DNA of 25,360 bases from Alphaproteobacteria bacterium (GCA_015163825.1 JAAOIL010000162.1:1-25360), one strand, 5' to 3'. Positions 18,688 through 24,979 are shown, counted from the first letter of the stretch. Notes: generated by a model not told the origin, from the letters alone. A program made the numbers and translations.

Positions 18688-20460
18688 ATGAAAGAGGCGG
18701 CAGCATATCAAGTGCAACGTTCTGCTTCGGCGCGATTTTGGAAAATGCGTCCGATTGATGATAATAAAATCCTCGCCATAACCCAACGCCATCAACTACC
18801 AGAGATAATCGCCCGCCTTTTATGTTTGCGCGGGGTTGCGCTTGATGATGTGCCGCATTATTTATCGCCTAAACTGCGTGATATAATGCCAGATCCCCTA
18901 TCATTGCGTGATATGGATAAAGCCGTTTCCCGCCTAGCAACCGCCATAGAGCAAGGCGAGACAATCGCTGTGTTCGGCGATTATGATGTTGATGGCGCAA
19001 CCTCATCGGCTATTTTATATCATTATTTATCGGCGCTAGGCTTGCCGCCACGCCTTTATATCCCCGACCGCCAAACGGAGGGCTATGGTCCCAATCATAA
19101 TGCGTTTTCTATTCTGAAAGAAGAGGGGCATAATATAATCGTCTGTGTTGATTGTGGCACAATGGCACATGATGTATTGGCGAAAGCCAAAGCGGACGGC
19201 ACAGAAATTATCGTCATAGACCATCACCAAAGCGGGGGTGGTTTGCCGTCTTGTGCTGCCCTTATCAACCCGCGCCGTGCTGATGATGATAGCGGGCTAG
19301 ATTATTTAGCAGCCGTTGGTGTGGTGTTTTTTGTGGTCGTCGGGTTGCATCGGGAACTTCGCAAACGCGGCTTTTTTGATGAAAAAGAAATGCCCGATTT
19401 AATGGGCTATTTAGATTTAGTGGCACTCGGCACGGTCTGTGATGTCGTGCCATTGCAAGGGGTTAATCGGGCTTTCGTGCAACAGGGCATAAAGGTTCTA
19501 CAAGGCAAAAATAGTAATATGGGGCTAGGGGCGTTGGCACGGGCGGCTAAATCCGAGCCGCCTTATGGCACTTATGAAATGGGCTTTCAATTAGGACCCC
19601 GCCTCAATGCTGGGGGGCGTGTCGGGCAGGCTAATCTGGGGGTGCGCCTATTGACCAGCGATGATGCAGAAGAACTGGTCGGCATTGCCGCGCGCCTTGA
19701 TGATTTCAACAAACAACGCCAAAGTATTGAAAAAACCGTGCTAGCGGAATCCCTCGCTATGGTGGAAACAAAAATAGGCTCGTCAAATACACCGCCGCCT
19801 TTTTTATTGGTCGCTAATGAAGACTGGCATATCGGGGTTGTCGGTATTGTCGCTAGTCGTTTGAAAGACCGCTATCATCGCCCAAGTTTTGTGTTGGGGT
19901 TTAATGACGGCAAATTTAAGGGGTCGGTGCGCTCTATCAGTGGCGTGGATATCGGGCGGATGGTGGCAACAGCCGTTGATAACAATATCATTGAGGGCGG
20001 GGGAGGGCACGCTATGGCAGCAGGGGTCACCCTGACCCCCGCACAATTACCCGCCTTTGAATCTTATCTGGCAGAAGCCCTTGAAGGCAAAGTGCAAGAC
20101 ACACCAAAAGAACTTATGCTTGATGGATCGCTAACACCAAAGGCGGCGACGCGTGATTTTTATGAAAGTTTGCAAGAGGTTGGTCCCTTCGGGGCAGGTA
20201 ATGCCGAGCCATGTTTTGCTCTGCCTGATGTCAGAATCATAAAGGCGACAATCGTGGGCGACCAACACGTGCGCTGCATCATAAGCGGCATAGATGGCGG
20301 CAGTCTAAAAGCAATGGCGTTTGCCTCTGTGCCAGAAGATGTGCGTCATGCTCTGTTGCAAAACCCCTATCGCGCCCACATTGCGGGCACTCTGCGCCCC
20401 GACGATTGGAACGGCAAAAACGATACCCAATTCTTCATCCGTGATATAGCCCTACCCTAA
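18688..20460 (+). CDS. recJ: Single-stranded-DNA-specific exonuclease RecJ
   Basis: DHH motifs GDYDVDGATS, VDCG and DHH; LVALGTVCDV, PRLNAGGR, GVVGIVASRL, DHHA1 GGGHAMAAG and PFGAGNAEP. Confidence 0.97.
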   Translation: MKEAAAYQVQRSASARFWKMRPIDDNKILAITQRHQLPEIIARLLCLRGVALDDVPHYLSPKLRDIMPDPLSLRDMDKAVSRLATAIEQGETIAVFGDYDVDGATSSAILYHYLSALGLPPRLYIPDRQTEGYGPNHNAFSILKEEGHNIIVCVDCGTMAHDVLAKAKADGTEIIVIDHHQSGGGLPSCAALINPRRADDDSGLDYLAAVGVVFFVVVGLHRELRKRGFFDEKEMPDLMGYLDLVALGTVCDVVPLQGVNRAFVQQGIKVLQGKNSNMGLGALARAAKSEPPYGTYEMGFQLGPRLNAGGRVGQANLGVRLLTSDDAEELVGIAARLDDFNKQRQSIEKTVLAESLAMVETKIGSSNTPPPFLLVANEDWHIGVVGIVASRLKDRYHRPSFVLGFNDGKFKGSVRSISGVDIGRMVATAVDNNIIEGGGGHAMAAGVTLTPAQLPAFESYLAEALEGKVQDTPKELMLDGSLTPKAATRDFYESLQEVGPFGAGNAEPCFALPDVRIIKATIVGDQHVRCIISGIDGGSLKAMAFASVPEDVRHALLQNPYRAHIAGTLRPDDWNGKNDTQFFIRDIALP

Positions 20461-20472
20461 AGGGCATGCCCC

Positions 20473-20501
20473 TTGACAGAAAAAGGGGGGCGGCATATCT
20501 T
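20473..20501 (+). promoter_or_regulatory. Putative sigma70 promoter for the two-gene cassette
   Basis: Perfect TTGACA (20473-78), 17-nt spacer, TATCTT (20496-20501). A GAGGTG RBS lies before ATG 20541. Confidence 0.65.
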
Positions 20502-20540
20502 GTGAATCAGGAAAATTATATCCGCAAATGAGGTGGAATC

Positions 20541-20771
20541 ATGAAGACGAACGATTTAGATTTAATACACGAAGACGTACTGATTGATGGGCGTATGCCT
20601 AGTTTTTGGGAGCACTTTGCTGATATGTGGAAGCCTGTCGCGGATATAAAATTGCACAGACCTAAAGTTGGTATGGCGCGTTGGGATGCGGATACACAAA
20701 GGATTAAAACATATTATGACAAAGCCTTAAAAACTTTAGACACCGAGATAGACCAACATGTCCAACGATAA
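20541..20771 (+). CDS. Hypothetical 76-aa soluble protein, upstream partner of the DUF2335-like gene
   Basis: Strong GAGGTG RBS, promoter upstream, and 14-nt overlap with the next gene. No family recognised. Confidence 0.7.
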   Translation: MKTNDLDLIHEDVLIDGRMPSFWEHFADMWKPVADIKLHRPKVGMARWDADTQRIKTYYDKALKTLDTEIDQHVQR

Positions 20772-21192
20772 AGATGACAAAACACCCATTGCTTCGTCTG
20801 AGGAAACAAGTCCAGTTACAAAATTAGGTGATGATAATCATGTTATCACAACAAAGGGATTTTCTGGTCCTGTGCCGCCGCCCGATATGTTACACGAATA
20901 TGAAAATGTATTGCCAGGGGCTGCGGAAAGAATTTTTATTCTTGCAGAGAAAAATCAAAGTGCTAGTGAAAAAATTACTTATGGCGTTATATCAAATGAT
21001 AAAGAGAAAATCCGCTATAGTTTTATTGTGTCTATTGTTTCTTTAATTGTGCCATTTGCACCAGCCGCAATAAGTATGTATCTAGGGCAAAACCCCTTTT
21101 TGAGTGGTGGTCTAGGAATTATTGGGGCGATAATTTTGATTTTGCTTCCTAAAATTGGTGCACGTCCAGAAGCGGATTCATCTACCGAGTAA
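20758..21192 (+). CDS. DUF2335-like predicted membrane protein
   Basis: The FSGPVPPPDMLHEYENVLPGAAERIFILAE motif is typical of DUF2335 (from recall) and is followed by two C-terminal hydrophobic helices. Confidence 0.82.
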   Translation: MSNDKDDKTPIASSEETSPVTKLGDDNHVITTKGFSGPVPPPDMLHEYENVLPGAAERIFILAEKNQSASEKITYGVISNDKEKIRYSFIVSIVSLIVPFAPAAISMYLGQNPFLSGGLGIIGAIILILLPKIGARPEADSSTE

Positions 21193-21251
21193 GGAAAATC
21201 CCGCCTTGAAATTAGTGGCGATTGGGGTTATATGGGGCGCATAAGTCTGTT

Positions 21252-21326
21252 GCACCCTTCGTCTATCGGTTAGGACGCCAGGTTTTCAACCTGGAAAGAG
21301 GGGTTCGATTCCCCTAGGGTGTACCA
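21252..21326 (+). tRNA. tRNA-Glu (TTC)
   Basis: 75 nt. GCACCCT/AGGGTGT acceptor stem, anticodon stem CCAGG/CCTGG with loop TT-TTC-AA, GTTCGATTC, encoded CCA. Confidence 0.96.
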
Positions 21327-21347
21327 GACTTTTTCCCTAAATTCAGA

Positions 21348-21968
21348 TTATCTTGCGGCTTGGTAGATTTTGTCGTCGCCTTCCCATACGCGTTTGATAA
21401 ACTGGTCACGACCAGAACGGAAGCGATAATATTTATAGCGCACGGCATTGCGGCGATAATAATCTTGGTGATAATCTTCGGCGGTATAGAATTTATCGGC
21501 TTTTTCAAGGCTTGTTGCGATGGTGTTAAACTTGCCCGATGCTTCTAGTGCTTTGATAGCCCCTTTGGCTAATCTTTTTTGTTTGGTGTTGGCATAATAT
21601 ATTGCGGTGGAATATTGTCGCCCTCTATCCACGAAACTGCCAGTGCCATCGCTTGGGTCGTGCATACGCCAGAATGCGCTCAGCAATTCTTGATAGCTAA
21701 CGATGTTGGTATCGTAAGGCACTTTGACCGTTTCGCGGTGTTGCGTTGCCCCCGATGCGACATCCCGATAAGCAGGGCGCACCTTCGCGCCACCCATATA
21801 GCCAGAGATAACATCGCCAACCCCTTCTATTTGTTCAAAGTCTGATTCCGTGCACCAGAAGCACCCGCCAGCGAAATAGGCAATTGCTTGTTCCGCTTGT
21901 GCTTGGGTGGTGGCGAGCGGGGAAGCCAGAATGGTGGAAAAGATGAGGGCGTATAATATATGTTTCAT
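21348..21968 (-). CDS. msrA: Peptide methionine sulfoxide reductase A with N-terminal signal peptide
   Basis: Motifs FAGGCFWCTE, SGYMGG, HDP, DRGRQYSTAIY and AEDYHQDYY; signal-like N-terminus ending AQA. Confidence 0.93.
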   Translation of the reverse strand: MKHILYALIFSTILASPLATTQAQAEQAIAYFAGGCFWCTESDFEQIEGVGDVISGYMGGAKVRPAYRDVASGATQHRETVKVPYDTNIVSYQELLSAFWRMHDPSDGTGSFVDRGRQYSTAIYYANTKQKRLAKGAIKALEASGKFNTIATSLEKADKFYTAEDYHQDYYRRNAVRYKYYRFRSGRDQFIKRVWEGDDKIYQAAR

Positions 21969-24336: not shown

Positions 24337-24361
24337 ACTATAACAATCGGAGGAGACTATT

Positions 24362-24661
24362 ATGAAAACGACAAAACTTTTTACGGTTATTTTACTGTCA
24401 TCTACGCTTCTTATCAGCGCTTGTGCTGATAAGCAAATATTCGTTCTTAAACGAGGCGGCGGCAGTTTGGTTGAAGATGCGCGTCATACTTTCCATTTTG
24501 GCGGTATTGGACAAAGCCAAAGCGTTAATGCTGCTGCTATTTGTGGTAGTGCTGAAAGAATTGTTAGTGTTGAAGCGGAAGATACATTTATTAATGGCTT
24601 AATTGGACTCATCACGCTTACAATTTATACCCCACGTCAATATCGTGTGCGTTGCGGTTAA
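24362..24661 (+). CDS. Bor/Iss-family lipoprotein, copy 1
   Basis: ISAC lipobox. 'GGIGQSQSVNAAAICGSAERIV...TFINGLIGLITLTIYTP...RVRC' parallels lambda Bor (GIGQKKTVDAAKICGGAENVV...TFVNGLLGFITLGIYTP, from recall). GGAGG RBS. Confidence 0.9.
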   Translation: MKTTKLFTVILLSSTLLISACADKQIFVLKRGGGSLVEDARHTFHFGGIGQSQSVNAAAICGSAERIVSVEAEDTFINGLIGLITLTIYTPRQYRVRCG

Positions 24662-24682
24662 TTTTGGAACAGGAGAAATATT

Positions 24683-24979
24683 ATGAAAACGGCAAATTTT
24701 TTTACGATAATCTTACTTGCATCCACTTTATTTGTGAGTGCATGTGCTAGGCAAGAATTTTCTATCAATGGCGGCAGTGGGAATGTTGCTCGCGATGAAG
24801 GCAATCATTTCTTCATTGGCGGCACTTTTCAAAGTCAGACAACCAACGTTGCGGAAATATGCGGAGGCGCAAAAAAAGTTGTGAGTGTTGAAGCCGAACA
24901 TACTTTTTTGAATTCTATAATCAGTCTTGTGTCTTGGGGCATATATACACCGCGTCAATATCGCGTTATTTGTCGCTAG
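24683..24979 (+). CDS. Bor/Iss-family lipoprotein, copy 2
   Basis: VSAC lipobox, HFFIGG, ICGGAKKVV, TFLN and GIYTP...RVIC. GGAG RBS. Confidence 0.9.
   Translation: MKTANFFTIILLASTLFVSACARQEFSINGGSGNVARDEGNHFFIGGTFQSQTTNVAEICGGAKKVVSVEAEHTFLNSIISLVSWGIYTPRQYRVICR

Follow-up and report, generated by a model that had tools for sequence, protein, structure and literature searches.

Two small overlapping genes of low GC content lie between recJ and tRNA-Glu in a 25,360-nucleotide stretch of an alphaproteobacterial genome (GCA_015163825.1, JAAOIL010000162.1:1-25360; this whole stretch is referred to hereafter as the window). They raise the question of how such a pair came to lie there, whether its two genes belong together, and whether it represents an undescribed toxin-antitoxin or anti-phage module, as had been suggested in an initial annotation made from the sequence alone.

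A low-GC two-gene cassette between recJ and tRNA-Glu

ORF1 (20541-20771, + strand) encodes a small soluble protein of 76 aa, which is predicted to be helical and is a divergent member of an unnamed partner family described below, while ORF2 (20758-21192, + strand) encodes a DUF2335 protein of 144 aa. Their coordinates bear out the 14-nt overlap that had been claimed. A ribosome-binding site, GAGGTGG (20530..20536, + strand), can be read from the sequence 4 nt before the ATG of ORF1, in line with the strong site noted earlier. A sigma-70-like promoter (TTGACA-17 nt-TATCTT; 20473..20501, + strand) starts 12 nt past the recJ stop codon; with 10/12 positions matched it supports the claim that the cassette has a promoter of its own, although promoter-like sites are no more numerous in the cassette region than in shuffled sequences.

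The inserted segment (20461..21203, + strand; ~0.73 kb) extends from the stop codon of recJ (18688-20460), its left flank, to the promoter of tRNA-Glu (CTTGAAA-17 nt-TATAT; 21205..21233, + strand), which marks its right edge. The tRNA-Glu(ttc) gene itself (21252..21326, + strand; ARAGORN) lies outside the cassette and, at 60.7 bits to the tRNA family, is the sole match in an Rfam search of the stretch. The GC content of the insert is 0.40 (0.41 in ORF1 and 0.38 in ORF2) compared to 0.51 in recJ and 0.49 in msrA, confirming the difference from recJ first estimated by hand, and third-position GC (GC3) is 0.26 in ORF2 versus 0.47 in recJ. Neither an integrase nor an IS gene is found within ~3 kb on either side, according to the ORF list of the window and the gene/Pfam table of a near-identical contig, and the placement of the pair between recJ and tRNA-Glu, away from such genes, holds over this distance.

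The cassette was inserted into a conserved junction

In 15/15 relatives from the same family and order, recJ runs straight into tRNA-Glu with no cassette, and by hand count its stop codon lies 0-40 nt before the tRNA-Glu promoter (GCTTGAAA-N17-TATATC). In the window, 791 nt separate the recJ stop from tRNA-Glu, and the tRNA-Glu promoter has the relatives' form and their distance to the tRNA, with 2 mismatches to the 15-relative consensus. Vertical conservation across the order, which the initial annotation had named as one outcome that would speak against a new system, is therefore not what this junction displays. We conclude that the cassette was horizontally acquired and inserted between recJ and tRNA-Glu in the source genome. 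It is intact in two further assemblies of the same organism, ~99.6% identical, with one amino-acid change, located in the tail of ORF2. Apart from this, we note that in several of the relatives (L181-L195) the -35 box of the tRNA-Glu promoter, TTGAAA, contains the recJ stop codon, TGA.

The promoter of the cassette occupies the position at which the relatives carry their tRNA-Glu promoter. With 4 mismatches to the relatives' consensus it is no significant copy of it, and it could either be the old tRNA promoter, captured by the insert, or have been brought along with the incoming DNA. A duplicated tRNA-Glu promoter bracketing the insert was considered and rejected as unproven, the left site failing on the same mismatches; a pattern drawn from the two promoter sites matches only those two, which makes that test circular. 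No target-site duplication was seen, and the best pair of flanking direct repeats (15/20 bases) is at chance level by estimate.

Some information on the source organism comes from public sequencing runs and from the assembly. Between 82 and 93% of the words sampled from window positions 20300-21400 occur in three runs from a single study of sponge metagenomes. All runs that contain the stretch are DNA sequencing of such metagenomes, and the one RNA run has 4% of the words. The organism is therefore probably a sponge-associated alphaproteobacterium. Its genome is small, with 1.13 Mb assembled at 79% completeness. Elsewhere in the window, at 24362-24979, two tandem paralogous genes for Bor-family lipoproteins (PF06291, E 9e-19 and 7e-20) lie in low-GC DNA directly 3' of tRNA-Pro(tgg); Bor is a lambda-type moron gene, and no prophage is in view. 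The near-identical assemblies L008 and L009 lack window positions 24351-24937 (587 bp) and have one Bor copy instead of two.

ORF2 is a DUF2335 protein with a predicted membrane hairpin

ORF2 scores 39.8 bits to PF10097 (DUF2335), above the gathering cut-off of 25, with an E-value of 4.3e-10; its residues 40-67 align to profile positions 1-28 of 50. It also matches PHROG 3996 (phrog_3996; 'membrane protein', in the moron/host takeover category) at 6.4e-19. To our knowledge, the DUF2335 family has no known function. The protein carries the conserved motif domain SGP-PPP-YE-PGAAERI, predicted to be cytoplasmic, which follows the family pattern G-P-x-P-x-P...Y-E...P-G-A-A-x-R-I and precedes two C-terminal membrane helices; residues P38, P40, Y48, G54, A56 and E64 fall in nearly invariant columns of the family alignment. 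Hydropathy gives two hydrophobic stretches, 85-106 and 114-137. In the AlphaFold2 model (72 relatives; mean pLDDT 81.6) the first ~40 residues are disordered and are followed by a helix at 42-51, an unbroken helix at 55-108, a four-residue turn and the second membrane helix at 113-134. The earlier description of ORF2 as this motif domain followed by two transmembrane helices is thus upheld by the Pfam match and by the helices of the hydropathy profile and the model, which agree.

The long helix 55-108 forms, in the model, a stalk linking the conserved cytoplasmic domain to the first membrane span, and lysine and arginine residues lie on both cytoplasmic sides of the helices, which fits an N-in/C-in hairpin. 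We suggest that a helical hairpin anchors ORF2 in the inner membrane, that its two termini both face the cytoplasm, and that its conserved cytoplasmic domain of ~50 residues is borne on the long stalk helix. ORF2 differs from the family in having no HR(H) motif behind its EKxQ helix, and its ends are acidic, those of most members being basic.

Searches for a related fold with the ORF2 model returned only generic helical hairpins, whether run against Swiss-Prot in the AlphaFold database, against the PDB with Foldseek or against the PDB with VIA-align in its wide setting, and the best scores (E 0.39, Z 6.7) are below the noise level for helical models. CorA/Mrs2 proteins appear among the results at insignificant scores (E 4-9, Z 5.9), the likeness being one of the 'stalk plus two helices' plan only. 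PDB profile searches with the DUF2335 and partner families likewise gave nothing significant, and rows with the hydrophobic hairpin of pore-forming toxins (E 0.3-1) were discounted. The best fold match in Swiss-Prot was Q9ZD18, the uncharacterised protein RP532 of Rickettsia prowazekii (probability 0.94, 24% identity over 78 residues); RP532 of this obligate intracellular alphaproteobacterium is probably a DUF2335-type protein.

DUF2335 genes are preceded by a conserved partner gene

The initial annotation had proposed to look for a conserved partner with a profile of the ORFs immediately upstream of DUF2335 genes, and such a partner family exists. DUF2335 loci were gathered from 400 further genomes of the class, from 80 genome contigs of many phyla and from 69 viral contigs. 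With a profile of 21 upstream ORFs (A1) as query, the 21,250 six-frame ORFs of at least 30 aa in 168 DUF2335 loci gave 144 matches at E<=10, 143 of which lie directly upstream of a DUF2335 ORF on the same strand; the one remaining match has an E-value of 0.04. After three profile iterations a partner was recognised in 155/168 loci, 150 of them at E<0.001. The 13 loci with no profile match include four cut by a contig end, one with a partner in an overlapping frame, three with a divergent partner of the type seen in the window (L033, L035, L037) and two with a recognisable variant (L047, L053). Altogether, ~95% of evaluable DUF2335 loci have a partner upstream. The order is always partner, then DUF2335, with overlaps or gaps of a few bases. 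At one locus (L106, 3889-4856) two tandem DUF2335 ORFs (E 3e-14 and 4e-10) directly follow a large gene, and no partner ORF can be recognised.

We conclude that the partner and the DUF2335 gene form a pair of fixed order that is almost obligate, in bacteria of many phyla as well as in phages and plasmids. A small gene that comes first and often overlaps the next is the usual layout of antitoxin-toxin operons; conservation of the pair alone, however, shows no relation of toxin and antidote. Complex prediction of ORF2 with ORF1 from their own alignments scored 0.00, with both chains poorly folded, and speaks neither for nor against a complex. Inter-protein covariation over 98 non-redundant pairs (mutual information with APC) reached a top value of 0.33, below the mean maximum of the shuffles (0.365). 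The type of partner motif is associated with the HR(H) motif of DUF2335 in a naive Fisher test (p = 0.016), and this was not relied on because the clearest cases probably form one clade.

ORF1 is a divergent member of the partner family

ORF1 is hydrophilic, with no hydrophobic window, and is predicted to be soluble. Its AlphaFold2 model, made with the family alignment, has a short helix at 22-29 and a long C-terminal helix at 42-75, with a pLDDT of 94-98 over the last 30 residues, which substantiates the earlier guess of a small, probably helical protein. Scans of Pfam, NCBIfam, PHROGs and PADLOC assign ORF1 to no family. In word-based homologue searches ORF1 retrieved nothing but itself and ORF2 a single relative, and no relative of ORF1 was found in 40 related genomes.

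ORF1 nevertheless resembles the partners in both position (directly upstream, same strand, overlapping) and sequence. The small ORFs that precede the DUF2335 genes in two related genomes (L003 and L005) align with it by BLASTP at 5e-6 and 2e-7, jackhmmer recovers these two and L025, and both conserved blocks of the partner family can be aligned with ORF1. The family consensus begins with a basic N-terminus, continues with a block resembling PSFLEGLARLLDLGG and closes with a C-terminal helix of the type EAD..AL.SDW..VG.D[ML]..A. Within this helix, the motif D-W-x-x-V-G-x-D-[ML]-x-x-A reads D-T-Q-R-I-K-T-Y-Y-D-K-A in ORF1, so that the first D, the I/V position and the final A are kept, and other residues stand in place of W, G and the second D. 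This variant recurs in L003, L005, L025 and L033, pointing to a subfamily rather than to decay of ORF1. Members of this subfamily, in which the C-terminal helix takes the form D...I..Y[FY]..A, are found at L003, L005, L025, L033, L035 and L037.

It could be argued that ORF1 is not a real gene and that the DUF2335 gene functions alone, given the lack of database relatives by word-based search and the missing W, G and D residues of the motif. Against this stand the alignments with partner ORFs in the same position, the six-locus subfamily, the strong ribosome-binding site, the confidently modelled C-terminal helix and the fact that the sequence of ORF1 is identical across three assemblies. We regard a spurious ORF1 as extremely improbable.

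Taken as a whole, the partner family is large. A profile of 78 partners (A4), searched against 1.84 billion proteins in clusters at 50% identity, matched 6,792 cluster representatives at E<=0.001, of which 624 also pass E<=1e-10, and nearly all of the 150 matches listed are 60-150 aa long. No convincing family match was obtained for partner-family members in Pfam and NCBIfam scans, and the profile has no counterpart in PADLOC either. Two of the top matches were inspected in their contigs: in one case a DUF2335 gene comes next, its start truncated by the gene caller, and the second match is a fusion protein that has no DUF2335 neighbour. In this fusion (P0146, 237 aa; L205/L206, 2501-3214) the partner domain is C-terminal, behind a part of ~150 aa with a sub-threshold match to PadR-like winged-helix proteins (E 0.002), and no DUF2335 gene follows; it is a rare fused, orphan form of the partner. 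Another partner protein (P0004, 115 aa) carries the C-terminal motif EA..SDWQAVGDD as a tandem duplicate.

The pair occurs in chromosomes, temperate phages and plasmids

Distribution within the class is patchy, with PF10097 present in 16/401 sampled genomes (4%). In one genus (g3), two species have divergent copies at different loci, one behind lpdA and the other between pccA and lipB. The pccA-lipB site is empty (171 nt) in the species with the lpdA copy, the intergenic DNA there being too diverged to give exact insertion boundaries. The nearest large neighbours of 38 chromosomal copies belong to 98 Pfam families, mostly housekeeping enzymes, with two phage genes among them; no integrase occurs among the common neighbour families of these loci. 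Nor is there a clear signal of defence-island enrichment near chromosomal copies, where single matches to defence models are scattered. One DUF2335 copy (L004/L014, genome G031) is broken by a TAG stop, is without the membrane part and adjoins an IS1595-like transposase ORF, from which we take it to be decayed.

DUF2335 is also carried by 69 viral contigs. In Pseudomonas phage MD8 the pair lies between the integrase and the tail fibres, in Escherichia phage vB_EcoP_ZX5 it adjoins the antirepressor, and in Staphylococcus phage IME-SA4 it is placed between endolysin and integrase; a small overlapping ORF precedes the DUF2335 gene in each. In a metagenomic contig (L007) the pair is inside a tail/baseplate module. 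Temperate-phage hosts with the pair are Escherichia, Klebsiella, Pseudomonas, Staphylococcus and Leptospira; carriage on plasmids was seen in Leptospira, Enterobacter, Escherichia, Rahnella and Azospirillum; and the phyla represented include Saccharibacteria, Bacillota, Chloroflexota and Proteobacteria. We conclude that the two genes travel together, unaccompanied by mobility genes. The initial picture of a moron-like unit found near prophages or defence genes is therefore borne out in part: moron positions in temperate phages are real, whereas the neighbours of the chromosomal copies are not enriched for defence.

These moron positions, by integrase, tail-fibre or lysis genes and also in tail modules, would suit a non-lethal superinfection exclusion system, in which ORF2, in the manner of P22 SieA, T4 Imm or HK97 gp15, would block the entry of incoming phage DNA or assembly of the conduit for it, and ORF1 would be an assembly factor or regulator and no antidote. 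PHROG files the membrane protein under moron/host takeover, and the window holds a second lambda-type moron gene, Bor, both of which are in keeping with such a role. However, the predicted outside loop of ~5-10 residues offers little surface for a phage conduit, and the pair spans the differing envelopes of Saccharibacteria, Bacillota, Chloroflexota and Proteobacteria, while exclusion proteins are usually phage-specific. Furthermore, many copies are isolated inserts in housekeeping DNA, and the obligate second gene is left unexplained. Exclusion of this kind is in our view an unlikely explanation, albeit one with some weight.

Another function known from phage genomes is the timing of lysis, with ORF2 as a class II-type holin and ORF1 as its antiholin or regulator. 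The N-in/C-in two-helix topology, the charged C-terminal tail of most family members and the position of the pair directly after endolysin in IME-SA4 agree with this. Yet a holin is already annotated in IME-SA4, the pair lies away from the lysis genes in MD8 and ZX5, and no endolysin or phage gene lies near most of the chromosomal copies, that of the window included, so that the pair does not qualify as a class II holin. ORF2 also possesses an extra conserved cytoplasmic N-terminal part of ~85 residues, which is unlike holins. Taken together, these observations make a role in lysis very unlikely.

A tentative membrane conflict module

We tentatively propose that the pair is a toxin-antitoxin-like membrane conflict module, a reading to which we give somewhat less than an even chance. 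It is favoured because the layout of a small soluble protein followed by a membrane protein, the selfish pattern of insertion and the moron positions in prophages fit it best. Under this proposal, ORF1, translationally coupled to ORF2 in a self-contained two-gene operon, would bind or control the cytoplasmic part of ORF2. ORF2 would damage or block the membrane and be held in check by ORF1; once a phage infection or the loss of the element removed or overrode the partner, either the cell or the invader would be stopped. In lysogens the outcome might be abortive infection or exclusion, and chromosomal and plasmid copies might be retained by addiction. The intact state of the cassette in the three ~99.6% identical assemblies speaks for retention.

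The conflict-module proposal has to be set against several null results. No family in PADLOC-DB 2.0 matches ORF1 or ORF2 at E<=1, and the pair belongs to no PADLOC system. A DNA-binding domain of the kind that most type II antitoxins have (HTH, RHH, AbrB or Phd) was found neither in ORF1 nor in 20 other partners by Pfam and NCBIfam scans. No functional study of DUF2335 or PF10097 came up in full-text literature searches; two papers on T6SS that mention a 'DUF2335 phospholipase' were set aside, as the DUF2235 lipase family is almost certainly meant. What was put forward initially therefore holds for the partner, the insertion and the moron positions, but the toxin-antitoxin or anti-phage function gains nothing from PADLOC, from the chromosomal neighbours, which are not enriched for defence, or from the fold and profile searches, which point to no mechanism. 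The suggestion that the cassette is the best candidate for a new system in the window is fair as a lead.

The absence of any match to a defence or toxin family could also mean that the pair has a membrane function unrelated to conflict, for instance as a tethered regulator or a stress or envelope factor, with the small protein as an adaptor on the cytoplasmic domain and the pair as a fitness gene of phages and plasmids. The heterogeneous housekeeping contexts and the stable retention in a small genome are compatible with this, and a stalk with two membrane helices is the plan of many signalling and transport proteins, as in the weak CorA/Mrs2 and HAMP-transducer rows of the fold searches. On the other hand, patchiness (4% of genomes of the class), foreign composition and a presence on phages and plasmids are what one sees in accessory conflict genes and not in genes of physiological function, and there is no conserved third gene or target nearby. 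We consider a non-conflict function rather improbable.

Returning to the conflict module, its boldest form would be a very widespread new class of two-gene membrane conflict system. DUF2335 would form a channel-like oligomer through its stalk helix and hairpin, on a CorA-type plan, gated by the partner; it would kill or arrest the cell upon phage infection or loss of the element, and the system would spread as a sub-kilobase cassette without a recombinase. We regard this fuller version as doubtful.

Regardless of its exact function, the cassette is one instance of a widespread module, found here in the small genome of an alphaproteobacterium that is probably sponge-associated. If it is a conflict module, it would be among the commonest unnamed ones, with a partner family of ~6,800 clusters at 50% identity. 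The present analysis contributes the size of that family, the near-exclusive adjacency of the two genes, the integrase-free housekeeping contexts and an insertion precisely bounded by comparison with 15 relatives. The window, for its part, supplies a clean example of an integrase-less cassette inserted at a conserved junction, in the small genome of a probable sponge symbiont, together with a divergent subfamily of partners. The pair is only ~0.7 kb long, has homologues in laboratory phages and strains, and comes with a simple predicted phenotype, namely membrane toxicity relieved by the partner or phage exclusion.

Comparison with known systems

RexA/RexB of lambda, gp44/gp43 of CarolAnn and gp30/gp31 of Sbash are prophage-expressed pairs of a cytoplasmic and an inner-membrane protein for which depolarisation upon infection has been proposed; RexA-type proteins contain DUF4747 and are ~280-370 aa long, and RexB-type proteins span the membrane with four helices (PMC6426606). 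The cassette shares with them the two-gene unit of a soluble and an inner-membrane protein, which is an analogy only. There is no sequence relation, ORF1 has 76 aa and no Pfam match, and ORF2 has two helices, not four, which places the pair outside the RexAB type.

CptB, an antitoxin, is a soluble protein of 88 aa encoded upstream of the toxin CptA, which has two membrane helices. CptB/CptA (YgfY/YgfX) is a type IV system of E. coli in which a membrane-bound toxin and a protein antitoxin share one operon (PMC3827094, citing Masuda et al. 2012); CptA acts on FtsZ and MreB, and the two proteins are said not to interact directly (PMC3827094). Here too the likeness, a membrane protein and a small soluble partner in one operon, is an analogy only, and neither ORF1 nor ORF2 has a Pfam match to either family that would indicate homology.

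Among superinfection-exclusion proteins, P22 SieA, T4 Imm and HK97 gp15 (PMC10883804, PMC3594210) are similar to ORF2 as small inner-membrane proteins of temperate-phage morons made in the lysogen. These, however, are single-gene systems of narrow phage specificity, whereas that of the window is an obligate pair, which extends across phyla and is also found outside prophages.
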